NCBI GenBank assembly: GCA_000002445.1
Contig: CP000066.1
Coordinates: 1,312,001-1,376,000 of the forward strand
Source of the DNA: Trypanosoma brucei
Taxonomy: Eukaryota
Direction of reading: 5' to 3'
DNA length: 64,000 bases
The translations under genes were made by a program, and so were the position numbers. This document shows, one piece after another, positions 11,917 through 40,638 of the stretch (the stretch's first letter is position 1; the number at the start of each line of letters is the position of its first letter). A model generated the notes under the pieces. That model made no database searches. It was not told the DNA's origin and saw nothing but the letters and a program-made list of their open reading frames with translations.

Positions 11917-11975
11917 ATATGAGTGTATACATAACCTTGTATATACGTACGCGTCTCCTCTTTGAAACCTTTCAA

Positions 11976-16773: not shown

Positions 16774-17018
16774 GTTGGGGGTAAACTAACTGCAATATGG
16801 CAGGCTTAACTGTTTAATGCAACCCCACTCATTTATTGAAACACCGGGGAACATCATGTGAGATCGCCACAAAACCCAGCCGTTGCACATATGTTACACA
16901 GTAAAAAGAAGGAAAAAAAAGGGTGAGGGAGGGAGAAAGTGGAGATATATGTGTCTTACTGTATGCAGAACCACGTGTGGAACTACTCGCCAACGCACAA
17001 TAGCAGTTCCGAGACGGC

Positions 17019-17023
<5 letters not shown>

Positions 17024-17049
<26 letters not shown>
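17024..17049. repeat. (TA)n microsatellite
   Basis: gtatatatatatatatatatatatatata. Confidence 0.9.
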
Positions 17050-20631: not shown

Positions 20632-20940
20632 TCAAAAAAAAAAAAATTGCGACAATAATAACAACTATTATTATTACTACCACTACTAAAACCTCGTTGA
20701 CACTGCTTTCAGCGCGGCTCGCCAACTGACGAAATGCTCTTGTCCCAAGACTGCGGTTATGCGGCGACCAAACAACAAAAAAGGAAAAAGAAAAAAATTC
20801 TCTACTAATAACAAAGTAAGCCGCCGGTGTCTCTAATGGAAAAAGAAGGATATGAGGACCATGGGAAAGGGAGAGCGAATAGGCTTCTACAGAGCAAATA
20901 CAAAGGCAGTAATGATCACACCAACCCGATAAATGCACAC

Positions 20941-20966
20941 ACACACACACATATATATATATATAA
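20941..20966. repeat. Compound (CA)5(TA)n microsatellite
   Basis: acacacacacatatatatatatataa. Confidence 0.9.
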
Positions 20967-22485
20967 TCGCAAAACGGATGACCAACAGCACGTCAAAATG
21001 ACACTTGATCATTACCTCTTCCGAATCCGATTCCTGTGCGCACCGTCCAGCACCCGAACTAACGAAGACACCATTCATCTGCGTGTGTTCTTACAAGTGA
21101 ATGGGGCCTTCGTTTGGAATTTCCGCATAAACGCGGCACATTTGGCGGTTTCTCACAAAAAACCACATCGTCCCCAAAATATCCCCGCTATCATGTTAAC
21201 GGACAATCAAATTAACTTTTCCACATTGTCAACAATGGTGAAACAAAATCAAAGGAGTTCGACGGGGGGATACATGGTTCGTCCGGTACTCATTTCCTTC
21301 TTTGGGATTCCAACTTAATGCATAAAATATAATCACGACACAAGGTCGAAACAAATTCAGTCCTGCCTCACAAGATGTCTCTCTCATAGAGGTTTGGTTA
21401 TGACATTGGATTGAGGTTACGAAATAGTGAATGGGGAAACGCAAAAGTAATGAGCAAACGGTCAACCACAAGATTTTATCACGTTCTGTTCATTTCGTAA
21501 TAACCGACAGCAAATACGGTGGACATTATCCTAAACATTTTTTTCTTATCTGGCTGAAAATACTCACAAGACCAGAGACATTGAGACAAGGCAACAGAAA
21601 ATATGGAAGAGAGGGAAAATACAAACACGAAGTGAGTAAACGGAAGAACGTCACCGCACCACAGATATGTGGTTATGGCAAAAGTACACACAGCGGCAGA
21701 TTGCAACAGATACATTACTCACAATCAGGTAATTAAAAAAACATAAGGTTTGCACAGTAAAAGTAGTGAAGAAGAAGCAAAAGGCAAAAAGTATTTTTAA
21801 AAAAAAAGCATTGAGAAATGCGCGCTTGACACGCGGCCATTCGGAGTCGCACGAGGTAGAGCCAGAAAAAAAAAAGGACGAAAACGCCCGTCCACGTAAG
21901 GAGTAGTGTACCAGCACGCTCCTTCAACTTTGTTTTTTTTTTCCTCTCCAACCACACCAAGCCGCAAACAGATACAAAGACACAATAATTCCCGTCTCCG
22001 AGTTAACCCACATGCGACCTACCTGATCAAAGAGTGGAAGGTGAAGGCAAACAAAAAAAAGCAAAGACCAAAGCAAAACAGGTTACAACGAAGAGTTGTA
22101 AGGATATAAACACCCGAAAATCCCATTATTCAAAGATTCCGTTCTTACAAAGAAGGGTCAATACGAAAAACATGTCAGGATTCGTAGCAACAAAGTGATG
22201 TCAGAGAATAGACATCAAGGAAAATCATGTTTGAGTAACCAAACAAGGTACCTACATTTTTTAGAGTGTATTCCCATCTTTTCTTCATTACACACTTCGT
22301 TACATACAAGTACTTCCTTCATACACAAAAGATCTGTCCGCAAACATTCCCGCATATTCCATCACAATGTAAAGACCCATTCGTACAATCCAATTTTTTC
22401 GTGTTGCAGTCTCGCACGTCTCAGCAACACTGCATATCCCTTCAGCTCATAATCCCAACAGACACACGCATATAAACCGCAAAGC

Positions 22486-24468
22486 CTAAATAAGAGCAAA
22501 CTCTCGAACACTGTCAAGGGCGGTACGCGCCTTCGTTAAAGCAGTCATCATCGCCGTGGTGGCGCTTCGTTGCTGAGCAATTTGTGGTGGCTCCGCAAGC
22601 AATTCCTCAACGGACCTTTCAGAATACAGTTTTCGCACCAACCTGGCATACACATCCTCACGCAACTTAGTTATCATGAGAAGAGTGATCGCTTTCGGTA
22701 CCTGATCAGCAACATTACTCTTCACAACAGCAAAGTAGCCCTCCACCATCTCACGAACCGCATCGTTGATATACTGTTCATGCGTTGACATTTTTTCATT
22801 TAGTTTGATGGAAGATGGTACAGCACCCATGTTGGATTTCTCCCCTTGAGAGACAATTGATTCTATCAGTCCCTTTCCACTTTTATCCTTGCTCACCTTC
22901 GCCTTACCCTTATCTTTATCATTTTCATTACCACCTTCCTCCTTTGACTCTTGGGCATTGCCACCAAATATTTTGATGAACGATCGCTGCACAAGATCCT
23001 CCATCAGTGGATGTTTCACATTGATGAAACCACGTTCAGCAGCAATGATTGTTTTGACATGCTCTACCGTGGGCGCACGGAATTCATTCAGCGCCTCACG
23101 GCATATATCCACAACAGCCTGCTTCAGTTTGGGGAAGCGCTCCAACTTGATTGAGCAGGCGTCGACGATCTTTATGAGTTCCTCGTACGTAAACTGCACG
23201 CACTTGAGTGACGGATCCTCCAAGCGCCCGATCTGCTGTTTTGCAAGTGCAACAAACACGTGATCTGATGGAAACAGGGACGCGTGCATACCAGCCATGT
23301 TCCGCGCATTAATGCGAATATACTCGTCGGTAAGGTCATTCTTCGCACTGATGCCGTTAACATATGTAGAGAAACATTCATGGAATATATAGTCAAGGCG
23401 GGCGCCACCAAGCAGTTCCTTAGAAGCATCCGATGCACCGCCATCAATTGTGTGGTTGATTGCGTCGCAAAACACTTTGATTAATGCCAGCATGCTAGCA
23501 CCAGGATCCACTCTGTCATGCTCACGCATACCAAGCCTTTCCATCTGTTTCCTTGTATCATCCAAGAGCTTGTCTACATGACTCTTTAACTCTGGAATAA
23601 CCATCTTGATGTGCTCGAGCAAGAGACCATTTAACTTCTGTGTCAGGTACTCTGTGCCCTGTGTGTCAGCAATGGACGCATATGCCGGGTGGTTGCGAAA
23701 AAATTCCTTTTCATCGTCACGAGCCGCTTGCATCCCCTTTGATGTATTTATATCATGTTGGCTGCGGTTAACGACACCAACGAAGCCGTGTCGAAGAGAC
23801 AAAACCTTCCCAGTAAGGATGTCGTACGCATCAGTGCCGCGATCCATAAGGTCCAGTTTCGTTAACACGGCAATTGTTCTCTCCCCCTCGGGATCCAACT
23901 GCTTGGCTATCTGGAGCGAAGAGCTCGTGGCCAAGTCAGCGTTTGCAGGAGATATCGCAAGAATAATTGTGTTTGAAGGAGAGATGTAACGCGTTACCAT
24001 ACTCTTGATCTGCCGATCGATATCTTTTGGTTGGTCACCAACGGCGTTCATCACGAGCCCGGGAAGATCGACAAGTGTCAGGTTAAGCACATGGGATGAG
24101 TAAATCTTGAGATTAATAGGCTTATCCGTAATAGCGGAGTGCCCAGCAACTTCCGTTGTACGGTTCTGAATCTCCTCATTGATCTCAGAAAAATCAAAAA
24201 ACTTCTTATTGGGTCTGTGGAGAAACTCACCCCATTCATCCTTGTTTGACCTTGGTAACTGTACCAGCTGCAAAACCAGTGGGCACCGTGTCACAATGCC
24301 TGAACCACGAGGAAGGAAATCCTTACCGACAATAGCCTCCAGCACACTGCTTTTGCCGGCACTCTGACTTCCCACAACAGCAATCTGTGGGAGGTTAAGC
24401 TTGATGTTCATCTTGACATTTGCAAAGGCATCGTGTAGGTCATTGACGACCGAGATGAGTCGCTCCAT
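22486..24468 (-). CDS. DLP1: Dynamin-like protein, copy A (probably TbDLP1)
   Basis: 660-aa ORF. Dynamin GTPase motifs: G1 VVGSQSAGKSSVLEAIVG; DLPG; TKLD. Middle domain and GED present. About 97% identical to copy B at 32510..34492. Assignment of DLP1 versus DLP2 to copy A versus B is from recalled Tb927.3.4720/4760 gene order and is uncertain. Confidence 0.9.
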   Translation of the reverse strand: MERLISVVNDLHDAFANVKMNIKLNLPQIAVVGSQSAGKSSVLEAIVGKDFLPRGSGIVTRCPLVLQLVQLPRSNKDEWGEFLHRPNKKFFDFSEINEEIQNRTTEVAGHSAITDKPINLKIYSSHVLNLTLVDLPGLVMNAVGDQPKDIDRQIKSMVTRYISPSNTIILAISPANADLATSSSLQIAKQLDPEGERTIAVLTKLDLMDRGTDAYDILTGKVLSLRHGFVGVVNRSQHDINTSKGMQAARDDEKEFFRNHPAYASIADTQGTEYLTQKLNGLLLEHIKMVIPELKSHVDKLLDDTRKQMERLGMREHDRVDPGASMLALIKVFCDAINHTIDGGASDASKELLGGARLDYIFHECFSTYVNGISAKNDLTDEYIRINARNMAGMHASLFPSDHVFVALAKQQIGRLEDPSLKCVQFTYEELIKIVDACSIKLERFPKLKQAVVDICREALNEFRAPTVEHVKTIIAAERGFINVKHPLMEDLVQRSFIKIFGGNAQESKEEGGNENDKDKGKAKVSKDKSGKGLIESIVSQGEKSNMGAVPSSIKLNEKMSTHEQYINDAVREMVEGYFAVVKSNVADQVPKAITLLMITKLREDVYARLVRKLYSERSVEELLAEPPQIAQQRSATTAMMTALTKARTALDSVREFALI

Positions 24469-24736
24469 AGGATCAAAAGTATCTAATAAAGGTGTAAGAT
24501 ATTAGTGTGCATGTGTGTGTGAAGAGGGGGAGATATAAACATCAACAAGGAAAGAACCACATGCAAGAACAATGATAACGAACATAAGGTGGGAATTCGG
24601 AAGACACTGTCACACATTTATCGTCACAGAGGTAGATTTTGCCTCATAGAAGAAGAGGGAAATATGATCTATTTTACAGGGTATGAGGTTGTGCGGCCCC
24701 CCTTACCTAGTCACAGCAGTATGGATCAGTAATCTT

Positions 24737-25903
24737 TCACCCGGTTCCATCCTCATTTTTATCGTCACTCAGAAGACCAAGCAACCGCTGTCGCCGCCGC
24801 CTCGCCTCAGAAACCTCCTGCAAAACGTGTGGTGCGTACGGTATCCTAATTCGCAGTTCACCATTCACCGAGCTGCGTTGTACATTAACACCCGAGGGAG
24901 CAACCTCTTGGCTTAACGGAACCTGGATGAGTTTCTCCTTAACAAACACTCGTATGTAGTTCACTTCCACTTGTACGTCAATTAGCGTTGTGGAGAGGAA
25001 TCTCGGTACCTTCACTGTCAACACAACTGCTTCACCATCATCCGCTTCCTCGTCAAGAGTGAAGGGGAGTTTGGGTTCGTTTCTCAGCAGAAGCCGCCCG
25101 TGCTTCGCTATCTCCTCCTCCGCAGTGAGACGCTGCGGCTTCCTTTCCAACTCTTCACGTATCGCGCCGAACTGACTAGACCGCTCACGTTCCCGTTGCT
25201 CTTCCCTTTTGCGCCTCTCCTCCTCCTCCTTCTCGCGCAGCATCTGGAGCCGCTCCTCTGGAGTATGGCCATATAAACGCTCACCCTTCTCGTTGTATCG
25301 TGGCGGAAAGGGGTCAACGCCTCGTGCAACCATCTCTGACTTGATACGCTCCGCTTCCTGCAGTCGCAGTGCCTCCTCATTCACAGCGACTGAAATGTCG
25401 TCTTTGCTTTGACGCGCCTCCAGCCGCTCTGTCTTAATTACCTCTTCTCCATCGAGCTCACGCAGCTGCGGCAGCGCGTGCACAACGTAGGCACGGTACC
25501 CGGCCACCTTCGTGCATGGGTTTCCAGTAAGATGCAACTGGTCCAGGAAAGCGTTCGCCCGCAGGCGCTCCACGCATGTCACGTCCGCCACAAAGTTCAG
25601 CGTCAGATCCAGACGCTCCAGGGCCTCACATCCCTCGAGACCTTCGATGTAAGTAATATTGTTCACAGCAAGGTTCAAATATTTGAGATACTTGAGATGC
25701 TGTAGGCCCTCGATGCGGGAAATGTAGTTGTTGCACAAGTATAGGATCTCCAGCTCACGACACGCGTCCCCAATGAGCTCGATCCTTTCAATGTCCTGCT
25801 GATGCAGTGCCACCTCCTTCAGGTTGCTTAGGCAACCTTCATTGTGCTCCGCGCGACGCCGAAGAAGGTCGGTAGTGATGCGGCCCATTGCTTGTATGAA
25901 CAA
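24737..25903 (-). CDS. LRTP: LRRC6/TILB (seahorse, LRTP-like) leucine-rich-repeat + coiled-coil + CS-domain protein, copy A
   Basis: 388-aa ORF. MGRITTDLLRRRAEHNEGCLSNLKEVALHQQDIERIE...ILYLCNNYISRIEGL...LNLAVNNITYIEGLEGCEALERLDLTLNF..LTGNPC is collinear with human LRRC6 (MGWITEDLIRRNAEHND...LSLHQQEIERLEHI...[43 protein letters not shown]..MGNPC). A charged coiled-coil follows (EKEEEERRKREEQRERER). A C-terminal CS/p23-like domain is present (VVLTVKVPRFLSTTLIDVQVEVNYIRVFVKEKLIQVPL, human [35 protein letters not shown]). Confidence 0.8.
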   Translation of the reverse strand: MFIQAMGRITTDLLRRRAEHNEGCLSNLKEVALHQQDIERIELIGDACRELEILYLCNNYISRIEGLQHLKYLKYLNLAVNNITYIEGLEGCEALERLDLTLNFVADVTCVERLRANAFLDQLHLTGNPCTKVAGYRAYVVHALPQLRELDGEEVIKTERLEARQSKDDISVAVNEEALRLQEAERIKSEMVARGVDPFPPRYNEKGERLYGHTPEERLQMLREKEEEERRKREEQRERERSSQFGAIREELERKPQRLTAEEEIAKHGRLLLRNEPKLPFTLDEEADDGEAVVLTVKVPRFLSTTLIDVQVEVNYIRVFVKEKLIQVPLSQEVAPSGVNVQRSSVNGELRIRIPYAPHVLQEVSEARRRRQRLLGLLSDDKNEDGTG

Positions 25904-26095
25904 TTAAAACAAAGGTCCGCTGCTTATGCCGCCCGCCCTATAAGCAACAGGATACTCTATACCTTGAAGAAGGAACGGAAAGAAGTGATGAAATAGGGAG
26001 AACGCGGCAATACCGGAATGCTGATGCACTAATGGGACCGCATAGCACCGCTACGGAATTCTCGATAGAAACTACACCCGAGACCATTACGTACC

Positions 26096-27370
26096 TCAGA
26101 GTGGCGGCATGGTGGGGGCTCCACAGCTACTATCCCCAAATGCCATCTGCAGTGCCCGCCGCGCGTCGTCAAAACGCTGGTGATCCCCAGACAACATCGC
26201 CTCGTCCACCACCTCAGTGTGGCGCAGCAGCACCGTGTCTTCGTCGCGCAGTTTGTGTCTGTACTCATAGTGTCCCAGCCGCACCAACTCACGCCCCGCA
26301 ACGGACGCGCGCATAAGCGTCAGGAAGGTGTCCATCAACACCTCGTAGAACGGTGACGACATGGCATGCCGCCGCAGCAGCATGTGCAAGCCTGACACCG
26401 TTGAGTCCAGCGCCTCGTGCGAGCCTGCGGGAAAGACGGCGCGGATAGCATCACGGTGGCGGAAGTGGTAGTCAAGGCGGCGTCCGAACACGAACTCACG
26501 CGCCGCATGATTTGTGCATGCCATCGCTATGGTTGCTACAGCGCATGAGGGCAACGGAGATCCCAGTGGAAGTCCCAGCACACCATTCACCAGCTGCTCT
26601 GTTGCACTAGTCGCGTGCTGCAGATAAGACATCGTCGCTGACACGGACCCAGGGTACTCACTACTTACCAACCCGGCACCCATGCTACACAGTGGTACAC
26701 ACCCGTTCACGAGCGAAAGAATTTCCGCTGCCAATGGTCCATCTAACCACGTAACACTCTCTCGTCGCCAGAGCCGCTCCGTCAGCGACTGCAATGAACG
26801 GGAAAGCTCAACGTCAGCCTTACCACCCAAAGCGAACGAAAGCGTGACACCGCTATTCCTATTGGCATCACCTCCATCACACGCAGCCGCAGACGTCACG
26901 GCCCATTCCCTTGCAAAAAGAGGCCCGGACACAACAACTAACTTCGATGGCAGATCCTGAGACACCCGCCCAAGCTGCTCCAGTGGCGTCAAGCCTTCTC
27001 TAGTAAAACCACGTGTGAACAGGAGCATCGGCGCGTCAGCGTGATTCTGCGCGCACCTAACCATCGGGGGCGTATGAGCGCCGTCATTTTCCAGGCACGT
27101 CGCTGGGACGCATGAAAGTACAGCATCCACACCTACGTCATCCTTTATGGGCTCCGCATCTACAGCGCGCACTGTCAACCCCGATGGCGCTCGTATGCGT
27201 CGGTCAGCCAGGCGGAAAGTGCGTGAGCCATACTGCACATCATGAAGGTAGTCACGGTCACGCCCTACCATCGTCACCTCACAAGACGCGGCCGCCCCAT
27301 TCGCTAGCAGAGAGAGGGCACATGCAGTCCCCAGCTCCCCACTACCAAGCACAAGTAGTCGGGTGCGCAT
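26096..27370 (-). CDS. Hypothetical protein with N-terminal NAD(P)-binding Rossmann-fold motif, copy A
   Basis: 424-aa ORF. MRTRLLVLGSGELGTACALSLLANG fits the GxGxxG dinucleotide-binding pattern of GPDH-like or ketopantoate-reductase-like oxidoreductases. The rest is not confidently assignable by eye. Identical to the copy at 36120..37394. Confidence 0.55.
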   Translation of the reverse strand: MRTRLLVLGSGELGTACALSLLANGAAASCEVTMVGRDRDYLHDVQYGSRTFRLADRRIRAPSGLTVRAVDAEPIKDDVGVDAVLSCVPATCLENDGAHTPPMVRCAQNHADAPMLLFTRGFTREGLTPLEQLGRVSQDLPSKLVVVSGPLFAREWAVTSAAACDGGDANRNSGVTLSFALGGKADVELSRSLQSLTERLWRRESVTWLDGPLAAEILSLVNGCVPLCSMGAGLVSSEYPGSVSATMSYLQHATSATEQLVNGVLGLPLGSPLPSCAVATIAMACTNHAAREFVFGRRLDYHFRHRDAIRAVFPAGSHEALDSTVSGLHMLLRRHAMSSPFYEVLMDTFLTLMRASVAGRELVRLGHYEYRHKLRDEDTVLLRHTEVVDEAMLSGDHQRFDDARRALQMAFGDSSCGAPTMPPL

Positions 27371-27740
27371 GACAAATTCACAGATCTGCCCCGTACCTCA
27401 CCGCTCCAAACATCAAACCTTGGAGAGGCAACATCAAAGGAGGATAGGGAACAACAAAGACATATGGAGGAGTAGCAACCGCAGGCTGCAACACTGTAGT
27501 GACGGGGAACCAACAAAAAATATGCAAACGCCATGTCCACCACTCACAAGCAAGCTGGTGGGAAGTCTCCCGATGAATGGTAAAATAAATGTTACCCACT
27601 CATGCGCTAGCAATAAACTTTACCAATACTACCTCCTTCATGTTTCTCATTTCTCCCTCCCCAACCCTAAAAATAAAATTCACCTGTGTTTCCTGCACAC
27701 ACAGTCATGCGTAGTGGAGCCATGCACAAAATATACTGGC

Positions 27741-30356
27741 TCACCGCGGAAAGAACAGGTAGGAGAGCTTTTGTCCACATCCCCACCGGCTCTGTAACCA
27801 GCCGCTCATCCTTATGCGCTCCACAGCTCGGTGCACGGCCAGTCGCGCATGAGGAAGCGGATTCAATCGGAAGAATTCGTCGAACTCCTTAGCATATGCT
27901 TCACCCGTGAGTGAAGAGCCAACAGCTTCCACGATGGCCTGAATCCGAAACGTTCCGCTTCCCCACTGCTTCTCGATTCCCTGGAAGTGCTTCTTGAACA
28001 GCGACCAGACATAGCCATTTGGAAGAGAGGGGCTTCCCGCCATCGCAGAAAATATCACACCACCATACTGTGACCGGATACCGTCGTTATAGATACAGCG
28101 CTTCGCAATACCCTCGACAAATTCGGCATCCTCGGCATAGCAGACGGCTCGCAGCAACGAGCGGCATAACTCTACGTTGTCATGAGCCTCCGCAAACCGA
28201 TTCCACACAGTCTGCGCACGTGCCGAAGTTTCCCCGGGTCCTAAGCGTATATACGCTGCCAGGGACATGGTAAGCGTGTCGGCGGTATACGTTGACCCTC
28301 CCAGATAAGCATCTGCTTCCTTCAGTGCCCACTCAACTGCTGGCAGCGCGAGTGCCTCCTTTGCAGACAGGCAATGAAGTGCCGTGGAAATGCATGCGTT
28401 GATAAAGAAGGCACGCTGCAGGCGCTCCTCTGCCGTACACGGTTCTGTCGAAACAAGCTTCGTCGCCACAACCATAATCTGGTACATTAGATTGTGTCGC
28501 AGCTCCCGCCGCACGTTGCCATCTTCCACGAATCCAAGGAAGTCATTCATATCGTGGTAGTACTCCTGCCACACTCCCGCATTCAACTCTCGCTCTGTGA
28601 GGACGCACCGGAGGATAGACAAACGCTCCACGTCATTATTTCCCATGTACACGGACGCCAGTGTGTCTGCAATCAAACCACAACGGTCAGGGATGGTAAG
28701 AGACTTGTATGCCCCCAACAATGACGAGAAGCTTGCTTCATCGTATCTGCAACGAAAGAAGCCTCGCCTCCGCGGGTTTGCGTTAATCCAGGGCGACTGA
28801 GCGAGCTCTTTAGGGAGATCCACACGCTGTTCCCCGCTCCCCCGCAAGGCGACACGGTGGCTGGTCCCATTGGCGCCTTCCAACACCACAGGCACACACC
28901 ATAGAGTACTCCTCCGCTCAGTCGCAGAGGCAAATTGACAAGGCTCTTGGCGCAGTATAACTACGCCAGACGATGGGCGGCTGACGTGGACAAGAGGGAA
29001 ACCCATCTGTGTTGTGAAAGAATCCATCGCCTCCGTCAGTGGGACCCCAGAGGACTCTTCCAGTGCCTCCCACAGTTGTTTCGTCGTTGTTGCGCCATAG
29101 CGATGCTTTTTGATGTAATGGGCCACCGAAGATGCCCACTTCTCGCCTAGGAACGCCTCTAGCATGTGCACCAGACCCATCCCCTTGTCGTAGCTAATCG
29201 CGTCGAATATCTGAGTAATCTCCGCGGGATCGCGGATGGGAACTTCCACAGGATGACTGTGCTCGTACATGTCACTTATCAGTGCGCTCGCCACACTTGC
29301 GTTGGCGTCCTCGTTGGCCCTCCATGCCGGCTGTAATTGGTGGGCAGCGTCATAGCCACACCACGAGGCAAATCCCTCCTTCAGCCATAGTCCTTCCCAC
29401 CAGTTGACGGTCACCAGGTTGCCAAACCAGTTGTGCGACACCTCGTGGCAGATCAACTCCGCGGCACCCTTCAGTGCTGCAACACTGGACGTTTCTTCAT
29501 CCACCAAAATGGCCTCCACGCAGGCAATGCAACCCCAGTTTTCCATCCCCCCGATTGGAAAGTCCGGTACGGCGACGACATCTAACTTGGGTAGGGGGTA
29601 CTTGCAATCAAAGAACTTCTCGAAGTACTCCAATGCAAAGGCGGTAGTGCGGAGTGCGAATGCTGCGCGCTGCAGCTTTCCAGGTACTGTGTAGACCCTT
29701 ATCGGTATGCCACAGGTTGTGGTACCAATGTGTTCCAGTTCCCCCACGAAACACGCGGTGAGATATGGAGGCACTGCGGGCACCATCTCAAAATCATAGG
29801 TCACGACATTGGACTCCACCTTCTTCGCACGGAGCGGACCGTTCGACAGCACCGTGTAGTTTTCCATGTCGCACGGAAGGGACACACGGAGCTTGAAGTC
29901 TGCACGGGCTGCCGGCTCGTCCTGACAGATGTAAAAGCAGCGCGCTGCTGTCGGCTCAAAATGCGTAGCAGCCATGCGGTGCTCCGTGCCGTCACCAGTT
30001 TTGAAGCACACACGGTAAAAGCCCCTCATTTCCTCTCGAATTTCTTGCGTGTAGCTGAACGTCACCGTGTGCTCCTCCGCAGTTTCACCACTCAGCTGCA
30101 ACTGCAAGGTGCTGGCCTCTTGGTTGTGCCCCACAATTGTCGCCCCACACACCTCGTGAATAGCCATCGTTGAGTTGTAATGCAACTGCAGCTCCTTTGA
30201 TCCTTCCACATCAGCCGCCCTTCGCAGTACAATTGTTTCCTTCCCATCGTACTTCCAACCTGCGAGGTCTACGCTGACGTGCAAGTCGTAGGACACAGGG
30301 ACGAAGGGGTTGCGTAACTTCACCGTATTCGCGGCATCTGAGGGGAGAGTTGGCAT
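27741..30356 (-). CDS. M1-family zinc aminopeptidase (puromycin-sensitive/aminopeptidase N-like), copy A
   Basis: 871-aa ORF. GGMENWG (GAMEN exopeptidase motif). HEVSHNWFGNLVTVNWWEGLWLKEGFASW is the gluzincin HExxH-x18-E motif. ERAP1-like C-terminal helical domain. Confidence 0.9.
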   Translation of the reverse strand: MPTLPSDAANTVKLRNPFVPVSYDLHVSVDLAGWKYDGKETIVLRRAADVEGSKELQLHYNSTMAIHEVCGATIVGHNQEASTLQLQLSGETAEEHTVTFSYTQEIREEMRGFYRVCFKTGDGTEHRMAATHFEPTAARCFYICQDEPAARADFKLRVSLPCDMENYTVLSNGPLRAKKVESNVVTYDFEMVPAVPPYLTACFVGELEHIGTTTCGIPIRVYTVPGKLQRAAFALRTTAFALEYFEKFFDCKYPLPKLDVVAVPDFPIGGMENWGCIACVEAILVDEETSSVAALKGAAELICHEVSHNWFGNLVTVNWWEGLWLKEGFASWCGYDAAHQLQPAWRANEDANASVASALISDMYEHSHPVEVPIRDPAEITQIFDAISYDKGMGLVHMLEAFLGEKWASSVAHYIKKHRYGATTTKQLWEALEESSGVPLTEAMDSFTTQMGFPLVHVSRPSSGVVILRQEPCQFASATERRSTLWCVPVVLEGANGTSHRVALRGSGEQRVDLPKELAQSPWINANPRRRGFFRCRYDEASFSSLLGAYKSLTIPDRCGLIADTLASVYMGNNDVERLSILRCVLTERELNAGVWQEYYHDMNDFLGFVEDGNVRRELRHNLMYQIMVVATKLVSTEPCTAEERLQRAFFINACISTALHCLSAKEALALPAVEWALKEADAYLGGSTYTADTLTMSLAAYIRLGPGETSARAQTVWNRFAEAHDNVELCRSLLRAVCYAEDAEFVEGIAKRCIYNDGIRSQYGGVIFSAMAGSPSLPNGYVWSLFKKHFQGIEKQWGSGTFRIQAIVEAVGSSLTGEAYAKEFDEFFRLNPLPHARLAVHRAVERIRMSGWLQSRWGCGQKLSYLFFPR

Positions 30357-30639
30357 GTTAAACCCTTGATTGATAACTTGTTAACTTGTCTGAAAAGTGA
30401 GAAAGCGCAAGGTTGCAATCAGTGAGGACAACACGCGGCAGGAGGGGGGAGGGTTCGAGTTGCGAAAGAGGTGTGACAGGGCACAGAACGACCTCCTACA
30501 GCACGCAGTACAATCAAAGCGAAAAGGGATTTACACGGTGTAGAGCAATAGAGTTGAACTCGTTTTGGAGTGGTGCTTGGGTTTATTAATACTTTTTTTT
30601 TTTTTTGATTAACTGCCGATGTAAATAATTTTTTATTTG

Positions 30640-32390: not shown

Positions 32391-32509
32391 ATGTAAAGAC
32401 CCATTCGTACAATCCAATTTTTTCGTGTTGCAGTCTCGCACGTCTCAGCAACACTGCATATCCCTTCAGCCCATAATCCCAACAGACACACGCATATAAA
32501 CCGCAAAGC

Positions 32510-34492
32510 CTAAATAAGAGCAAACTCTCGAACACTGTCAAGGACGGTACGCGCCTTCGTTAAAGCAGTCATCATCGCCGTGGTGGCGCTTCGTTGCTGA
32601 GCAATTTGTGGTGGCTCCGCAAGCAACTCTCCAACGGTCCTTTCAGAATACAGTTTTCGCACCAACCTGGCATACACATCCTCACGCAACTTAGTTATCA
32701 TGAGAAGAGTGATCGCTTTCGGTACCTGATCAGCAACATTACTCTTCACAACAGCAAAGTAGCCCTCCACCATCTCACGAATTGCATCGTTGATATACTG
32801 TTCATGCGTTGACATTTTACCGTTCAACTTAATGGAAGATGGTACAGCACCCATGTTGGATTTCTCCCCTTGAGAGACGGCAGATTCTATCAGTCCTTTG
32901 ACACCTTTATCCTTGCTCACCTTCGCCTTACCCTTATCTTTATCATTTTCATTACCACCTTCCTCCTTTGACTCTTGGGCATTGCCACCAAATATTTTGA
33001 TGAACGATCGCTGCACAAGATCCTCCATCAGTGGATGTTTCACATTGATGAAACCACGTTCAGCAGCAATGATTGTTTTAACATGCTCTACCGTGGGCGC
33101 ACGGAATTCATTCAGCGCCTCACGGCATATATCCACAACAGCCTGCTTCAGTTTGGGGAAGCGCTCCAACTTGATTGAGCAGGCGTCGACGATCTTTATG
33201 AGTTCCTCGTACGTAAATTGCACGCACTTGAGTGACGGATCCTCCAAGCGCCCGATCTGCTGTTTTGCAAGTGCAACAAACACGTGATCTGATGGAAACA
33301 GGGACGCGTGCATACCAGCCATGTTCCGTGCATTAATGCGAATATACTCGTCGGTAAGGTCATTCTTCGCACTGATGCCGTTAACATATGTAGAGAAACA
33401 TTCATGGAATATATAGTCAAGGCGGGCGCCACCAAGCAGTTCCTTAGAAGCATCCGATGCACCGCCATCAATTGTGTGGCTGAGTGTGTCGCAAAACACT
33501 TTGATTAATGCCAGCATGCTAGCACCAGGATCGATATTGTCTTGCTCACGCATACCAAGCCTTTCCATCTGTTTCCTTGTATCATCCAAGAGCTTGTCTA
33601 CATGACTCTTTAACTCTGGAATAACCATCTTGATGTGCTCGAGCAAGAGACCATTTAACTTCTGTGTCAGGTACTCTGTGCCCTGTGTGTCAGCAATGGA
33701 CGCATATGCCGGGTGGTTGCGAAAAAATTCCTTTTCATCGTCACGAGCCGCTTGCATCCCCTTTGATGTATTTATATCATGTTGGCTGCGGTTAACGACA
33801 CCAACGAAGCCGTGTCGAAGAGGCAAAACCTTCCCAGTAAGGATGTCGTACGCATTAGTGCCGCGATCCATAAGGTCCAGTTTCGTTAACACCCCAAGGG
33901 TCCTCAGACCTTCGGGATCCAACTGCTTGGCTATCTGGAGCGAAGAGCTCGTGGCCAAGTCAGCGTTTGCAGGAGATATCGCAAGAATAATTGTGTTTGA
34001 AGGAGAGATGTAACGCGTTACCATACTCTTGATCTGCCGATCGATATCTTTTGGTTGGTCACCAACGGCGTTCATCACGAGCCCGGGAAGATCGACAAGT
34101 GTCAGGTTAAGCACATGGGATGAGTAAATCTTGAGATTAATAGGCTTATCCGTAATAGCGGAGTGCCCAGCAACTTCCGTTGTACGGTTCTGAATCTCCT
34201 CATTGATCTCAGAAAAATCAAAAAACTTCTTATTGGGTCTGTGGAGAAACTCACCCCATTCATCCTTGTTTGACCTTGGTAACTGTACCAGCTGCAAAAC
34301 CAGTGGGCACCGTGTCACAATGCCTGAACCACGAGGAAGGAAATCCTTACCGACAATAGCCTCCAGCACACTGCTTTTGCCGGCACTCTGACTTCCCACA
34401 ACAGCAATCTGTGGGAGGTTAAGCTTGATGTTCATCTTGACATTTGCAAAGGCATCGTGTAGGTCATTGACGACCGAGATGAGTCGCTCCAT
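32510..34492 (-). CDS. DLP2: Dynamin-like protein, copy B (probably TbDLP2)
   Basis: 660-aa ORF with the same motifs as copy A. It differs at about 17 residues: ERTIAV to LRTLGV, TDAY to TNAY, LSLRH to LPLRH, REHDRVDP to REQDNIDP, CDAINH to CDTLSH, plus several C-terminal changes. The N-terminal GTPase domain is identical. Confidence 0.9.
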   Translation of the reverse strand: MERLISVVNDLHDAFANVKMNIKLNLPQIAVVGSQSAGKSSVLEAIVGKDFLPRGSGIVTRCPLVLQLVQLPRSNKDEWGEFLHRPNKKFFDFSEINEEIQNRTTEVAGHSAITDKPINLKIYSSHVLNLTLVDLPGLVMNAVGDQPKDIDRQIKSMVTRYISPSNTIILAISPANADLATSSSLQIAKQLDPEGLRTLGVLTKLDLMDRGTNAYDILTGKVLPLRHGFVGVVNRSQHDINTSKGMQAARDDEKEFFRNHPAYASIADTQGTEYLTQKLNGLLLEHIKMVIPELKSHVDKLLDDTRKQMERLGMREQDNIDPGASMLALIKVFCDTLSHTIDGGASDASKELLGGARLDYIFHECFSTYVNGISAKNDLTDEYIRINARNMAGMHASLFPSDHVFVALAKQQIGRLEDPSLKCVQFTYEELIKIVDACSIKLERFPKLKQAVVDICREALNEFRAPTVEHVKTIIAAERGFINVKHPLMEDLVQRSFIKIFGGNAQESKEEGGNENDKDKGKAKVSKDKGVKGLIESAVSQGEKSNMGAVPSSIKLNGKMSTHEQYINDAIREMVEGYFAVVKSNVADQVPKAITLLMITKLREDVYARLVRKLYSERTVGELLAEPPQIAQQRSATTAMMTALTKARTVLDSVREFALI

Positions 34493-34760
34493 AGGATCAA
34501 AAGTATCTAATAAAGGTGTAAGATATTAGTGTGCATGTGTGTGTGAAGAGGGGGAGATATAAACATCAACAAGGAAAGAACCACATGCAAGAACAATGAT
34601 AACGAACATAAGGTGGGAATTCGGAAGACACTGTCACACATTTATCGTCACAGAGGTAGATTTTGCCTCATAGAAGAAGAGGGAAATATGATCTATTTTA
34701 CAGGGTATGAGGTTGTGCGGCCCCCCTTACCTAGTCACAGCAGTATGGATCAGTAATCTT

Positions 34761-35927
34761 TCACCCGGTTCCATCCTCATTTTTATCGTCACTCAGAAGA
34801 CCAAGCAACCGCTGTCGCCGCCGCCTCGCCTCAGAAACCTCCTGCAAAACGTGTGGTGCGTACGGTATCCTAATTCGCAGTTCACCATTCACCGAGCTGC
34901 GTTGTACATTAACACCCGAGGGAGCAACCTCTTGGCTTAACGGAACCTGGATGAGTTTCTCCTTAACAAACACTCGTATGTAGTTCACTTCCACTTGTAC
35001 GTCAATTAGCGTTGTGGAGAGGAATCTCGGTACCTTCACTGTCAACACAACTGCTTCACCATCATCCGCTTCCTCGTCAAGAGTGAAGGGGAGTTTGGGT
35101 TCGTTTCTCAGCAGAAGCCGCCCGTGCTTCGCTATCTCCTCCTCCGCAGTGAGACGCTGCGGCTTCCTTTCCAACTCTTCACGTATCGCGCCGAACTGAC
35201 TAGACCGCTCACGTTCCCGTTGCTCTTCCCTTTTGCGCCTCTCCTCCTCCTCCTTCTCGCGCAGCATCTGGAGCCGCTCCTCTGGAGTATGGCCATATAA
35301 ACGCTCACCCTTCTCGTTGTATCGTGGCGGAAAGGGGTCAACGCCTCGTGCAACCATCTCTGACTTGATACGCTCCGCTTCCTGCAGTCGCAGTGCCTCC
35401 TCATTCACAGCGACTGAAATGTCGTCTTTGCTTTGACGCGCCTCCAGCCGCTCTGTCTTAATTACCTCTTCTCCATCGAGCTCACGCAGCTGCGGCAGCG
35501 CGTGCACAACGTAGGCACGGTACCCGGCCACCTTCGTGCATGGGTTTCCAGTAAGATGCAACTGGTCCAGGAAAGCGTTCGCCCGCAGGCGCTCCACGCA
35601 TGTCACGTCCGCCACAAAGTTCAGCGTCAGATCCAGACGCTCCAGGGCCTCACATCCCTCGAGACCTTCGATGTAAGTAATATTGTTCACAGCAAGGTTC
35701 AAATATTTGAGATACTTGAGATGCTGTAGGCCCTCGATGCGGGAAATGTAGTTGTTGCACAAGTATAGGATCTCCAGCTCACGACACGCGTCCCCAATGA
35801 GCTCGATCCTTTCAATGTCCTGCTGATGCAGTGCCACCTCCTTCAGGTTGCTTAGGCAACCTTCATTGTGCTCCGCGCGACGCCGAAGAAGGTCGGTAGT
35901 GATGCGGCCCATTGCTTGTATGAACAA
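34761..35927 (-). CDS. LRTP: LRRC6/TILB (LRTP-like) protein, copy B (identical to copy A)
   Basis: 388-aa ORF, 100% identical in translation to 24737..25903. Confidence 0.8.
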   Translation of the reverse strand: MFIQAMGRITTDLLRRRAEHNEGCLSNLKEVALHQQDIERIELIGDACRELEILYLCNNYISRIEGLQHLKYLKYLNLAVNNITYIEGLEGCEALERLDLTLNFVADVTCVERLRANAFLDQLHLTGNPCTKVAGYRAYVVHALPQLRELDGEEVIKTERLEARQSKDDISVAVNEEALRLQEAERIKSEMVARGVDPFPPRYNEKGERLYGHTPEERLQMLREKEEEERRKREEQRERERSSQFGAIREELERKPQRLTAEEEIAKHGRLLLRNEPKLPFTLDEEADDGEAVVLTVKVPRFLSTTLIDVQVEVNYIRVFVKEKLIQVPLSQEVAPSGVNVQRSSVNGELRIRIPYAPHVLQEVSEARRRRQRLLGLLSDDKNEDGTG

Positions 35928-36119
35928 TTAAAACAAAGGTCCGCTGCTTATGCCGCCCGCCCTATAAGCAACAGGATACTCTATACCTTGAAGAAGGAAC
36001 GGAAAGAAGTGATGAAATAGGGAGAACGCGGCAATACCGGAATGCTGATGCACTAATGGGACCGCATAGCACCGCTACGGAATTCTCGATAGAAACTACA
36101 CCCGAGACCATTACGTACC

Positions 36120-37394
36120 TCAGAGTGGCGGCATGGTGGGGGCTCCACAGCTACTATCCCCAAATGCCATCTGCAGTGCCCGCCGCGCGTCGTCAAAACG
36201 CTGGTGATCCCCAGACAACATCGCCTCGTCCACCACCTCAGTGTGGCGCAGCAGCACCGTGTCTTCGTCGCGCAGTTTGTGTCTGTACTCATAGTGTCCC
36301 AGCCGCACCAACTCACGCCCCGCAACGGACGCGCGCATAAGCGTCAGGAAGGTGTCCATCAACACCTCGTAGAACGGTGACGACATGGCATGCCGCCGCA
36401 GCAGCATGTGCAAGCCTGACACCGTTGAGTCCAGCGCCTCGTGCGAGCCTGCGGGAAAGACGGCGCGGATAGCATCACGGTGGCGGAAGTGGTAGTCAAG
36501 GCGGCGTCCGAACACGAACTCACGCGCCGCATGATTTGTGCATGCCATCGCTATGGTTGCTACAGCGCATGAGGGCAACGGAGATCCCAGTGGAAGTCCC
36601 AGCACACCATTCACCAGCTGCTCTGTTGCACTAGTCGCGTGCTGCAGATAAGACATCGTCGCTGACACGGACCCAGGGTACTCACTACTTACCAACCCGG
36701 CACCCATGCTACACAGTGGTACACACCCGTTCACGAGCGAAAGAATTTCCGCTGCCAATGGTCCATCTAACCACGTAACACTCTCTCGTCGCCAGAGCCG
36801 CTCCGTCAGCGACTGCAATGAACGGGAAAGCTCAACGTCAGCCTTACCACCCAAAGCGAACGAAAGCGTGACACCGCTATTCCTATTGGCATCACCTCCA
36901 TCACACGCAGCCGCAGACGTCACGGCCCATTCCCTTGCAAAAAGAGGCCCGGACACAACAACTAACTTCGATGGCAGATCCTGAGACACCCGCCCAAGCT
37001 GCTCCAGTGGCGTCAAGCCTTCTCTAGTAAAACCACGTGTGAACAGGAGCATCGGCGCGTCAGCGTGATTCTGCGCGCACCTAACCATCGGGGGCGTATG
37101 AGCGCCGTCATTTTCCAGGCACGTCGCTGGGACGCATGAAAGTACAGCATCCACACCTACGTCATCCTTTATGGGCTCCGCATCTACAGCGCGCACTGTC
37201 AACCCCGATGGCGCTCGTATGCGTCGGTCAGCCAGGCGGAAAGTGCGTGAGCCATACTGCACATCATGAAGGTAGTCACGGTCACGCCCTACCATCGTCA
37301 CCTCACAAGACGCGGCCGCCCCATTCGCTAGCAGAGAGAGGGCACATGCAGTCCCCAGCTCCCCACTACCAAGCACAAGTAGTCGGGTGCGCAT
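36120..37394 (-). CDS. Hypothetical Rossmann-fold protein, copy B (identical to copy A)
   Basis: 424-aa ORF identical to 26096..27370. Confidence 0.55.
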   Translation of the reverse strand: MRTRLLVLGSGELGTACALSLLANGAAASCEVTMVGRDRDYLHDVQYGSRTFRLADRRIRAPSGLTVRAVDAEPIKDDVGVDAVLSCVPATCLENDGAHTPPMVRCAQNHADAPMLLFTRGFTREGLTPLEQLGRVSQDLPSKLVVVSGPLFAREWAVTSAAACDGGDANRNSGVTLSFALGGKADVELSRSLQSLTERLWRRESVTWLDGPLAAEILSLVNGCVPLCSMGAGLVSSEYPGSVSATMSYLQHATSATEQLVNGVLGLPLGSPLPSCAVATIAMACTNHAAREFVFGRRLDYHFRHRDAIRAVFPAGSHEALDSTVSGLHMLLRRHAMSSPFYEVLMDTFLTLMRASVAGRELVRLGHYEYRHKLRDEDTVLLRHTEVVDEAMLSGDHQRFDDARRALQMAFGDSSCGAPTMPPL

Positions 37395-37764
37395 GACAAA
37401 TTCACAGATCTGCCCCGTACCTCACCGCTCCAAACATCAAACCTTGGAGAGGCAACATCAAAGGAGGATAGGGAACAACAAAGACATATGGAGGAGTAGC
37501 AACCGCAGGCTGCAACACTGTAGTGACGGGGAACCAACAAAAAATATGCAAACGCCATGTCCACCACTCACAAGCAAGCTGGTGGGAAGTCTCCCGATGA
37601 ATGGTAAAATAAATGTTACCCACTCATGCGCTAGCAATAAACTTTACCAATACTACCTCCTTCATGTTTCTCATTTCTCCCTCCCCAACCCTAAAAATAA
37701 AATTCACCTGTGTTTCCTGCACACACAGTCATGCGTAGTGGAGCCATGCACAAAATATACTGGC

Positions 37765-40380
37765 TCACCGCGGAAAGAACAGGTAGGAGAGCTTTTGTCC
37801 ACATCCCCACCGGCTCTGTAACCAGCCGCTCATCCTTATGCGCTCCACAGCTCGGTGCACGGCCAGTCGCGCATGAGGAAGCGGATTCAATCGGAAGAAT
37901 TCGTCGAACTCCTTAGCATATGCTTCACCCGTGAGTGAAGAGCCAACAGCTTCCACGATGGCCTGAATCCGAAACGTTCCGCTTCCCCACTGCTTCTCGA
38001 TTCCCTGGAAGTGCTTCTTGAACAGCGACCAGACATAGCCATTTGGAAGAGAGGGGCTTCCCGCCATCGCAGAAAATATCACACCACCATACTGTGACCG
38101 GATACCGTCGTTATAGATACAGCGCTTCGCAATACCCTCGACAAATTCGGCATCCTCGGCATAGCAGACGGCTCGCAGCAACGAGCGGCATAACTCTACG
38201 TTGTCATGAGCCTCCGCAAACCGATTCCACACAGTCTGCGCACGTGCCGAAGTTTCCCCGGGTCCTAAGCGTATATACGCTGCCAGGGACATGGTAAGCG
38301 TGTCGGCGGTATACGTTGACCCTCCCAGATAAGCATCTGCTTCCTTCAGTGCCCACTCAACTGCTGGCAGCGCGAGTGCCTCCTTTGCAGACAGGCAATG
38401 AAGTGCCGTGGAAATGCATGCGTTGATAAAGAAGGCACGCTGCAGGCGCTCCTCTGCCGTACACGGTTCTGTCGAAACAAGCTTCGTCGCCACAACCATA
38501 ATCTGGTACATTAGATTGTGTCGCAGCTCCCGCCGCACGTTGCCATCTTCCACGAATCCAAGGAAGTCATTCATATCGTGGTAGTACTCCTGCCACACTC
38601 CCGCATTCAACTCTCGCTCTGTGAGGACGCACCGGAGGATAGACAAACGCTCCACGTCATTATTTCCCATGTACACGGACGCCAGTGTGTCTGCAATCAA
38701 ACCACAACGGTCAGGGATGGTAAGAGACTTGTATGCCCCCAACAATGACGAGAAGCTTGCTTCATCGTATCTGCAACGAAAGAAGCCTCGCCTCCGCGGG
38801 TTTGCGTTAATCCAGGGCGACTGAGCGAGCTCTTTAGGGAGATCCACACGCTGTTCCCCGCTCCCCCGCAAGGCGACACGGTGGCTGGTCCCATTGGCGC
38901 CTTCCAACACCACAGGCACACACCATAGAGTACTCCTCCGCTCAGTCGCAGAGGCAAATTGACAAGGCTCTTGGCGCAGTATAACTACGCCAGACGATGG
39001 GCGGCTGACGTGGACAAGAGGGAAACCCATCTGTGTTGTGAAAGAATCCATCGCCTCCGTCAGTGGGACCCCAGAGGACTCTTCCAGTGCCTCCCACAGT
39101 TGTTTCGTCGTTGTTGCGCCATAGCGATGCTTTTTGATGTAATGGGCCACCGAAGATGCCCACTTCTCGCCTAGGAACGCCTCTAGCATGTGCACCAGAC
39201 CCATCCCCTTGTCGTAGCTAATCGCGTCGAATATCTGAGTAATCTCCGCGGGATCGCGGATGGGAACTTCCACAGGATGACTGTGCTCGTACATGTCACT
39301 TATCAGTGCGCTCGCCACACTTGCGTTGGCGTCCTCGTTGGCCCTCCATGCCGGCTGTAATTGGTGGGCAGCGTCATAGCCACACCACGAGGCAAATCCC
39401 TCCTTCAGCCATAGTCCTTCCCACCAGTTGACGGTCACCAGGTTGCCAAACCAGTTGTGCGACACCTCGTGGCAGATCAACTCCGCGGCACCCTTCAGTG
39501 CTGCAACACTGGACGTTTCTTCATCCACCAAAATGGCCTCCACGCAGGCAATGCAACCCCAGTTTTCCATCCCCCCGATTGGAAAGTCCGGTACGGCGAC
39601 GACATCTAACTTGGGTAGGGGGTACTTGCAATCAAAGAACTTCTCGAAGTACTCCAATGCAAAGGCGGTAGTGCGGAGTGCGAATGCTGCGCGCTGCAGC
39701 TTTCCAGGTACTGTGTAGACCCTTATCGGTATGCCACAGGTTGTGGTACCAATGTGTTCCAGTTCCCCCACGAAACACGCGGTGAGATATGGAGGCACTG
39801 CGGGCACCATCTCAAAATCATAGGTCACGACATTGGACTCCACCTTCTTCGCACGGAGCGGACCGTTCGACAGCACCGTGTAGTTTTCCATGTCGCACGG
39901 AAGGGACACACGGAGCTTGAAGTCTGCACGGGCTGCCGGCTCGTCCTGACAGATGTAAAAGCAGCGCGCTGCTGTCGGCTCAAAATGCGTAGCAGCCATG
40001 CGGTGCTCCGTGCCGTCACCAGTTTTGAAGCACACACGGTAAAAGCCCCTCATTTCCTCTCGAATTTCTTGCGTGTAGCTGAACGTCACCGTGTGCTCCT
40101 CCGCAGTTTCACCACTCAGCTGCAACTGCAAGGTGCTGGCCTCTTGGTTGTGCCCCACAATTGTCGCCCCACACACCTCGTGAATAGCCATCGTTGAGTT
40201 GTAATGCAACTGCAGCTCCTTTGATCCTTCCACATCAGCCGCCCTTCGCAGTACAATTGTTTCCTTCCCATCGTACTTCCAACCTGCGAGGTCTACGCTG
40301 ACGTGCAAGTCGTAGGACACAGGGACGAAGGGGTTGCGTAACTTCACCGTATTCGCGGCATCTGAGGGGAGAGTTGGCAT
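37765..40380 (-). CDS. M1-family zinc aminopeptidase, copy B (identical to copy A)
   Basis: 871-aa ORF identical to 27741..30356, with the same GAMEN and HExxH-E motifs. Confidence 0.9.
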   Translation of the reverse strand: MPTLPSDAANTVKLRNPFVPVSYDLHVSVDLAGWKYDGKETIVLRRAADVEGSKELQLHYNSTMAIHEVCGATIVGHNQEASTLQLQLSGETAEEHTVTFSYTQEIREEMRGFYRVCFKTGDGTEHRMAATHFEPTAARCFYICQDEPAARADFKLRVSLPCDMENYTVLSNGPLRAKKVESNVVTYDFEMVPAVPPYLTACFVGELEHIGTTTCGIPIRVYTVPGKLQRAAFALRTTAFALEYFEKFFDCKYPLPKLDVVAVPDFPIGGMENWGCIACVEAILVDEETSSVAALKGAAELICHEVSHNWFGNLVTVNWWEGLWLKEGFASWCGYDAAHQLQPAWRANEDANASVASALISDMYEHSHPVEVPIRDPAEITQIFDAISYDKGMGLVHMLEAFLGEKWASSVAHYIKKHRYGATTTKQLWEALEESSGVPLTEAMDSFTTQMGFPLVHVSRPSSGVVILRQEPCQFASATERRSTLWCVPVVLEGANGTSHRVALRGSGEQRVDLPKELAQSPWINANPRRRGFFRCRYDEASFSSLLGAYKSLTIPDRCGLIADTLASVYMGNNDVERLSILRCVLTERELNAGVWQEYYHDMNDFLGFVEDGNVRRELRHNLMYQIMVVATKLVSTEPCTAEERLQRAFFINACISTALHCLSAKEALALPAVEWALKEADAYLGGSTYTADTLTMSLAAYIRLGPGETSARAQTVWNRFAEAHDNVELCRSLLRAVCYAEDAEFVEGIAKRCIYNDGIRSQYGGVIFSAMAGSPSLPNGYVWSLFKKHFQGIEKQWGSGTFRIQAIVEAVGSSLTGEAYAKEFDEFFRLNPLPHARLAVHRAVERIRMSGWLQSRWGCGQKLSYLFFPR

Positions 40381-40638
40381 GTTAAACCCTTGATTGATAA
40401 CTTGTTAACTTGTCTGAAAAGTGAGAAAGCGCAAGGTTGCAATCAGTGAGGACAACACGCGGCAGGAGGGGGGAGGGTTCGAGTTGCGAAAGAGGTGTGA
40501 CAGGGCACAGAACGACCTCCTACAGCACGCAGTACAATCAAAGCGAAAAGGGATTTACACGGTGTAGAGCAATAGAGTTGAACTCGTTTTGGAGTGGTGT
40601 TGTTGAAGATTTGTAGCTGTTGTTAACAAAATGTGGGC

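Follow-up and report, generated by a model that had tools for sequence, protein, structure and literature searches.

The tandemly duplicated DLP1/DLP2 block of Trypanosoma brucei: evidence pointing to gene conversion between old copies

A window of 64,000 nucleotides of DNA from Trypanosoma brucei TREU927 was analysed, which contains two direct copies of a four-gene block carrying DLP1 and DLP2, two genes of the dynamin superfamily, along with the genes for an M1 aminopeptidase, a conserved hypothetical protein with a Rossmann domain, and LRTP, a DNAAF11/LRRC6-like protein. Comparison of these copies with those of two further genomes of the species complex suggests that the block is old and has been homogenised by gene conversion, with small patches in DLP escaping; we put the probability of this explanation as a whole at about 0.75. 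Benz, Stribrna, Hashimi and Lukes (2017, PLoS One 12:e0177200; PMC5421789) had described the same four-gene duplication on chromosome 3 of T. brucei, in which Tb927.3.4730/4770 (LRTP), 4740/4780 (the hypothetical protein) and 4750/4790 (aminopeptidase M1) are duplicated with the DLP genes, the ORFs (open reading frames) of all three are 100% identical, and the intergenic regions are conserved. The same authors reported 19 amino-acid differences between the DLPs and identity over the first 512 nt or more, cloned and tagged both isoforms, and confirmed the DLP differences by resequencing the cloned constructs. The finding as it was first stated, in an annotation made from the letters of the window alone (the original prediction), is a correct rediscovery of a locus already known, and adds very little, since the structure and the identical duplicates are in the literature, as is experimental work on the two DLP isoforms. 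What is added here is the evidence that the identity of the copies reflects homogenisation and not recency, and a four-copy array in Trypanosoma vivax, which contradicts the published placement of the duplication in T. brucei alone. No description of gene conversion or concerted evolution at the DLP locus was found in the literature searched.

Structure and gene content of the repeat

The window was compared with itself without gaps at an offset of 10,024, and megablast, used as a second method, gave the same result. Two direct repeats of 8,210 bp with a period of 10,024 bp were found at the positions originally predicted, and they align with 0 gaps and 45 mismatches (99.45% identity). Past both repeat ends, the identity drops to background within 1-2 bases. 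A match of 8,210 bp cannot have arisen by chance. The repeats, their segments and their genes are as follows.

22366..30575, minus strand: repeat copy 1, the downstream unit by transcription (aminopeptidase, GPDH-N-like protein, LRTP, DLP1)
32390..40599, minus strand: repeat copy 2, the upstream unit by transcription (aminopeptidase, GPDH-N-like protein, LRTP, DLP2)
22447..23887, minus strand: sole variable segment of the repeat, with 45 differences; partner 32471-33911
23888..30575, minus strand: perfectly identical segment of 6,688 bp; partner 33912-40599
30576..32389, minus strand: unique spacer of 1,814 bp between the repeats, with the distal DLP2 3' untranslated region (UTR) and the sequence preceding the aminopeptidase gene of copy 1
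22486..24468, minus strand: TbDLP1 (Tb927.3.4720), 660 amino acids; exact match to AAZ10505/XP_844064; Pfam dynamin domains
32510..34492, minus strand: TbDLP2 (Tb927.3.4760), 660 amino acids; exact match to AAZ10509
24737..25888, minus strand (copy 2, 34761-35912): LRTP, DNAAF11/LRRC6-like (Tb927.3.4730), 383 amino acids; Pfam LRR_9 and CS_DNAAF11_C
26096..27370, minus strand (copy 2, 36120-37394): conserved hypothetical protein with a NAD_Gly3P_dh_N Rossmann domain in Pfam (Tb927.3.4740), 424 amino acids; AAZ10507 = AAZ10511
27741..30356, minus strand (copy 2, 37765-40380): M1 aminopeptidase (Tb927.3.4750), 871 amino acids; Pfam peptidase M1 and ERAP1_C; AAZ10508 = AAZ10512

All 45 mismatches fall within the variable segment. 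The identical segment, with zero mismatches, covers three whole ORFs with all their intervening DNA, as well as 581 nt at the start of the DLP ORF, and the predicted identity of the three non-DLP ORFs and their intergenic DNA was thereby confirmed. The accompanying statement that the copies differ only inside the DLP ORFs applied to 44 of the 45 mismatches; the other one (22447/32471) is located in the 3' UTR, 39 nt past the stop codon. Self-alignment had been named as the means by which substantial divergence outside DLP would come to light, and this single position was all that it revealed outside the DLP ORF. The repeat ends 120 nt past the DLP stop codon. Neither the spacer nor the outer flanks showed similarity to any other part of the window, and the spacer contained no convincing ORF, no Rfam match and no tRNA. 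A Rfam scan at the gathering threshold, a tRNA scan and a tandem-repeat scan likewise detected no functional element in the spacer or elsewhere in the window.

In the order of transcription, each unit consists of the genes for the M1 aminopeptidase, the 424-amino-acid Rossmann protein, LRTP and DLP, and all the long ORFs between approximately 14 and 50 kb of the window are on the minus strand, as expected of a kinetoplastid polycistronic unit. Pfam agreed with the predicted identities of all four genes. The DLPs matched Dynamin_N (2e-54), Dynamin_M (1.5e-80) and GED (5.7e-23); that is, the GTPase, the middle (stalk) region and the GED are all present, as in classical DLP/Drp1-type members of the dynamin superfamily. 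Because the gene at 22486-24468 encodes E196, I199 and A200, which are the DLP1 states given in PMC5421789, and that at 32510-34492 encodes L196, L199 and G200, the former was assigned as TbDLP1 and the latter as TbDLP2. Exact protein look-ups assigned the window to chromosome 3 of TREU927 and showed that the three non-DLP proteins each carry two accessions. The LRTP ORF had been predicted with 388 amino acids (24737-25903 and 34761-35927); this ORF is indeed identical in the two copies, but its TTG start was set mechanically five codons upstream of the true start, the ATG at 25888/35912, from which the protein annotated in Trypanosoma brucei gambiense DAL972 has 383 amino acids. In agreement with the published description, the DLPs encoded in the window differ at 19 amino acids, their ORFs first diverge at position 582, and no difference exists in the other three ORFs. 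The exact protein matches and this agreement support the prediction that the architecture is that of the reported DLP1/DLP2 locus, and both the zero mismatches and PMC5421789 support its claim that the LRTP, aminopeptidase and Rossmann genes are present as perfectly identical duplicates.

Comparison of the copies across genomes

The two units of TREU927 were aligned with those of T. b. gambiense DAL972 (FN554966.1) and of the PacBio assembly of T. b. equiperdum IVM-t1 (CM010674.1), giving six units. Each of these genomes likewise carries two units; boundaries and spacer correspond to those of TREU927, with the spacer kept at approximately 99%, and the period is 10,021 bp in DAL972 and approximately 10,018 bp in T. 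equiperdum. The same two-unit layout, boundaries and spacer in the three genomes indicate that the duplication is older than the divergence of T. b. brucei, gambiense and equiperdum. This comparison with other subspecies had been proposed together with the original prediction, which also raised the concern that a single real copy had been duplicated by the assembler. As regards the existence of two copies, that concern was not borne out, since three independent assemblies, one of them from PacBio reads, share the layout and the spacer and both DLP isoforms have been cloned and tagged.

Outside DLP (6,107 bp), 28 sites distinguish TREU927 from DAL972; at every one of them the two copies within a genome have the same state, and no copy-specific site (0) was observed. 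Divergence between the strains was 0.46% in the core outside DLP and 0.9-1.9% in the spacer and flanks. If the copies had evolved independently, at least approximately 28 copy-specific differences would be expected; as none was seen, the copies have been homogenised since the strain split. The paralogues within a genome are thus closer to each other than the orthologues between genomes despite the older duplication, which is the pattern of concerted evolution. The two copies of T. equiperdum are only 4 substitutions apart over the same 6,107 bp, all of them within 76 bp of the Rossmann gene, and this PacBio assembly supports near-identity outside DLP. Perfect identity had originally been taken to imply either a very recent duplication or ongoing homogenisation, and it is for the latter that the comparison across genomes decides.

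In DLP, the differences between the paralogues are gathered in patches at codons 194-200, 317-320, 336-338, 530-538, 554-558, 570-571 and 619-622, plus isolated sites. Gaps of no more than 5 nt accounted for 29 of the 43 gaps between neighbouring differences; under random placement, the mean number of such gaps was 6.5 and the maximum was 15 (10,000 trials). In the variable part of DLP, comparison of TREU927 and DAL972 yielded 38 copy-specific sites common to both subspecies, 6 strain-specific sites present in both paralogues, and 8 singletons. The strain-specific sites interleave with the copy-specific patches, and those at unit positions 7037, 7754 and 7850 are each located 18-33 nt from a patch, which rules out mis-assignment of reads as their source. 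Both TREU927 DLPs, for instance, have V435, and all the other sequences compared, including that of Trypanosoma congolense, have I435. Taken with the mosaic DLP2 of T. equiperdum, the interleaving amounts to a mosaic phylogenetic signal along the repeat, by which conversion tracts are recognised. In T. equiperdum, three patches of DLP2 (codons 336-338, 558 and 619-622) have taken on the DLP1 state, showing that conversion at the scale of a patch does occur. T. equiperdum has no insect stage, and the conversion of its DLP2 is consistent with relaxed constraint, as judged from one genome in an error-prone assembly. The DLP1 copy of the same assembly contains four deletion events in 1,983 bp, compared with approximately 0.5 per kb elsewhere in the units; these deletions are either PacBio errors or real decay.

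DLP1 and DLP2 differ by 21 synonymous and 23 non-synonymous changes, with a ratio of non-synonymous to synonymous divergence (dN/dS) of 0.30. The synonymous divergence (dS) was 0.65 in the codons adjacent to an amino-acid difference, 0.24 at a distance of two codons, 0.05 at three to five codons, 0 at six to 20 codons and approximately 0.01 further away. In a model in which selection against gene conversion maintains islands of divergence between paralogues, neutral divergence is highest at the selected sites and declines away from them, and the dS profile of DLP shows such a decay. This pattern is the one expected if conversion has erased all but short segments tied to residues that need to differ, and it is at odds with a burst of positive selection.

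Alternative explanations and proposed mechanism

The perfect identity of 6,688 bp might instead be a sign of youth, the whole block having been duplicated very recently and DLP having then diverged rapidly by positive selection or local hypermutation. The published phylogeny, which puts the duplication only in the T. brucei clade (PMC5421789), is in keeping with this explanation, but the chance that it is correct is very small. The boundaries and the spacer are identical in three subspecies whose orthologues are 0.5-1.9% apart, so that the duplication is older than their split; the copy-specific differences that would then have accumulated outside DLP are absent; the patch states of DLP1 and DLP2 are common across the subspecies; and half of the DLP differences are synonymous, which together with the low dN/dS leaves no signature of positive selection. 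The boundaries shared across subspecies and the lack of copy-specific sites effectively refute a recent duplication, and it was rejected. It is somewhat less improbable, although still unlikely, that the two copies are real but that, outside DLP, one collapsed consensus was written out for both, the true copies being more divergent. An 8-kb near-identical repeat is indeed hard to resolve with Sanger reads, and DAL972 was ordered on the TREU927 template (PMC2854126). However, the PacBio-based assembly of T. equiperdum resolves both copies with very few substitutions between them, the proximity of strain-specific sites of both paralogues to copy-specific patches makes mis-assignment impossible, and the copy-specific DLP differences were confirmed in resequenced cloned constructs (PMC5421789).

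A further explanation, which we regard as improbable but as the most serious of the alternatives, accepts that the homogenisation is real and attributes the patches to a few clustered multi-nucleotide events, such as error-prone repair or micro-conversion from an unknown diverged donor; the patches would then persist through mismatch-repair anti-recombination, in which dense mismatches block the heteroduplex. The extreme clustering (codons 194-200 carry 9 changes within 19 nt, and codons 554-558 carry 7 within 13 nt) and the restriction of synonymous divergence to two codons on each side of the amino-acid differences are in its favour. So is the observation that, at the nucleotides that differ, outgroups side with DLP1 about as often as with DLP2: the T. 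vivax state equals that of DLP1 at 14, that of DLP2 at 16 and neither at 14. Between T. brucei and T. vivax, synonymous sites have reached saturation (proportion of synonymous differences, pS, 0.78). On the other hand, no donor sequence for the patches was found on either strand of the 64-kb window, the conversion seen in T. equiperdum DLP2 shows that there is no absolute barrier, and the published differences in function and phosphorylation map to the patches, in particular to insert B (PMC5421789). Several points nevertheless weigh against an old block with patches maintained by selection. Selection and a mechanical barrier, for example rejection by mismatch repair where a patch is highly mismatched, cannot be told apart with these data; the islands, at approximately two codons on each side, are narrower than simple tract-based models of conversion predict; and clustered multi-nucleotide mutations could be the source of such narrow islands. 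In addition, DAL972 was assembled with TREU927 as the template and both assemblies are Sanger-based (PMC2854126), and the perfect identity over 6 kb may be partly a consensus effect and slightly overstated. The T. equiperdum assembly has many single-base deletions, and the comparison covers three genomes of one species complex.

The locus is a real two-unit segmental duplication within one minus-strand polycistronic transcription unit, with a unique 1.8-kb spacer between the units, and the comparisons above show homogenisation both outside DLP and between the DLP patches. We propose that recurrent non-reciprocal exchange (gene conversion) between the units keeps the old copies identical or nearly so. 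Conversion also works inside DLP, where approximately seven patches, each of no more than nine codons, remain copy-specific in all the genomes compared. Most likely, these patches persist as selection for functional differences between DLP1 and DLP2 removes convertants. Such selection would fit the published differences between the isoforms, which are unlike in stage-specific abundance (opposite regulation), in phosphorylation and in rescue ability; bloodstream forms were rescued by DLP1 and not by DLP2, and the DLP1-specific phosphorylation sites adjoin the insert-B patch (PMC5421789). Under active homogenisation, the surviving differences between DLP1 and DLP2 are good candidates for functionally important residues.

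Because the repeat ends so close to the DLP stop codon, the DLP2 mRNA runs into the spacer and the DLP1 mRNA into a different region of 1.7 kb. Trypanosome genes are regulated mainly through their 3' UTRs, and it is plausible that the unlike distal 3' UTRs are the simplest basis of the opposite stage regulation of DLP1 and DLP2. The other three gene pairs share their coding sequence and both intergenic flanks, except upstream of aminopeptidase position -219, and from their sequence the LRTP, Rossmann and aminopeptidase pairs would seem to be plain dosage duplicates. Cycles of unequal crossing-over (from two copies to one and back to two) were also considered as the homogenising process, and were rejected on the grounds that they would delete the spacer and one DLP isoform, both of which are conserved.

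Flanking sequence, other trypanosomes and known arrays

The repeats are flanked by two single-copy genes.

40639..42498, minus strand: upstream neighbour, 619 amino acids, no Pfam domain; its stop codon is 39 nt from the repeat boundary
18991..20631, minus strand: downstream neighbour, 546 amino acids

Between the 546-amino-acid gene and the repeat lies a unique region of 1,734 bp (20632-22365), which holds the distal DLP1 3' UTR. Further downstream, positions 17000-19000 are AT-rich (GC content 0.31-0.38, compared with approximately 0.48 elsewhere) and contain only low-complexity spurious ORFs; this is probably a long 3' UTR or an intergenic region. The orthologue of the 619-amino-acid gene stands directly upstream of the aminopeptidase gene in T. 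vivax, Trypanosoma cruzi and Trypanosoma theileri. Its stop codon is separated from the aminopeptidase ATG by only 258 bp in the window (40381-40638), by 249 bp in T. vivax and by 418 bp in T. cruzi. This short gap looks ancestral, and it must accommodate the signals for polyadenylation of the upstream transcript as well as those for trans-splicing of the aminopeptidase mRNA. A 20-nt motif, GGAGAGGCAACAACAAAGGA, is present in 1.9 copies at 27422-27459 and at 37446-37483, between the aminopeptidase and Rossmann genes of each unit, and the stretch from 18 to 44 kb has no other tandem repeat. The Logan short-read contig ERR7929162_5963 spans unit positions 267-5823 with 99.4% identity and contributed nothing decisive. 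Q8ITV0, a T. brucei "dynamin-related protein", is only 90% identical to DLP1, owing to two garbled frameshift-like stretches; it is otherwise of the DLP1 type but has the DLP2 insert-B states V531 and A538, and could be a chimeric clone or a natural mosaic of another strain.

The copy number in T. vivax, a check that had been suggested with the original prediction, was determined in the long-read assembly GCA_021307395.1. Contig SOPI01000639.1 (1275663-1320821) contains four tandem copies of the orthologous four-gene unit, in which cores of 7,720 bp (approximately 99.85% identical) are separated by three identical spacers of 1,094 bp, with a period of 8,814 bp. The array resembles that of T. 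brucei in having the same four genes in the same order, a core-spacer-core layout, and a core that starts in the short gap between the 619-amino-acid gene and the aminopeptidase gene. The core starts 105 nt before the aminopeptidase ATG and 144 nt past the stop codon of the 619-amino-acid orthologue in T. vivax (219 and 39 nt, respectively, in T. brucei), and ends 80 nt past the DLP stop codon (120 nt in T. brucei). It differs in the number of copies, four compared with two, in the lengths of core and spacer, and in its DLP copies, which are essentially undifferentiated and have no patches. Frameshifts, probably errors of the long reads, interrupt several of these DLP copies. The start of an independent short-read contig of T. 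vivax coincides exactly with the core boundary, as would be expected of a branch point in a repeat.

In T. vivax and T. brucei alike, neither end of the array carries a spacer copy. In T. brucei, the spacer showed no homology to the sequence that flanks copy 1 downstream, nor was any similarity detected between the T. vivax and T. brucei spacers, by blastn with a word size of 7 or by local alignment against dinucleotide shuffles (z of -0.2 to 2.2 across the spacer comparisons). That both array ends lack the spacer would follow most simply from a single old duplication of core plus spacer, after which the terminal spacer copy diverged beyond recognition and the cores stayed alike. As the spacers cannot be aligned and the synonymous sites are saturated, common descent of the T. 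brucei and T. vivax arrays is unproven. A tentative reading, to which we give somewhat less than even odds, is that the DLP block is an old salivarian array whose age is hidden by conversion, with approximately seven selected micro-islands of no more than nine codons in T. brucei.

A single unit with the same gene order is present in T. cruzi (a 719-kb contig, GCA_003177095.1) and in T. theileri. In Trypanosoma melophagium (JAJSEB010000018.1), DLP alone is present three times in tandem (6800-8791, 10001-11992 and 15977-17968) with 98-99% nucleotide identity and 8 variable codons; this separate, DLP-only amplification is downstream of a single aminopeptidase/Rossmann/LRTP set. The duplication had been placed in the T. 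brucei subclade only (PMC5421789), and a 2026 preprint again gives it as specific to T. brucei. The view that the duplication is restricted to T. brucei does not hold for the assemblies now available, as it is contradicted by the four units of T. vivax and the three DLP genes of T. melophagium. These copies also change the framing of the argument for "specialisation for high endocytosis in T. brucei".

If an ancient array with selected islands is the correct reading, the locus would offer an unusually clear natural example of sub-functionalisation in genes that evolve in concert. For practical work, knock-outs, CRISPR edits, RNA-seq mapping and copy-number calls that involve LRTP, the aminopeptidase or the Rossmann protein must allow for two copies of each gene, and likely collapse of the DLP locus in short-read assemblies has to be reckoned with.

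The locus of PMC5421789 is the same as that in the window (Tb927.3.4720-4750 and 4760-4790), with the same 19 amino-acid differences between the DLPs and the same identical other genes; the paper did not give the exact boundaries, the unique spacer or gene conversion. Concerted evolution has been established for tandem arrays of T. brucei (Jackson 2007, BMC Evol Biol 7:54; PMC1855330). The DLP block resembles those arrays in being composed of direct repeats in a polycistronic unit, in that copies within a genome are closer than orthologues between genomes, and in that homogenisation stops where the repeat structure is disrupted. It differs from them in being a heterogeneous four-gene block of 8.2 kb in two copies only, with a unique spacer, and in that its DLP gene keeps fixed micro-islands of divergence between the paralogues; the locus is absent from the main text of that paper. 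The segmental duplications of T. b. brucei and gambiense (Jackson et al. 2010; PMC2854126) are likewise multi-gene and inside the core chromosomes. In contrast to the DLP block, which is homogenised and constant in copy number and boundaries, those duplications vary in copy number between the subspecies and have strongly diverged copies.

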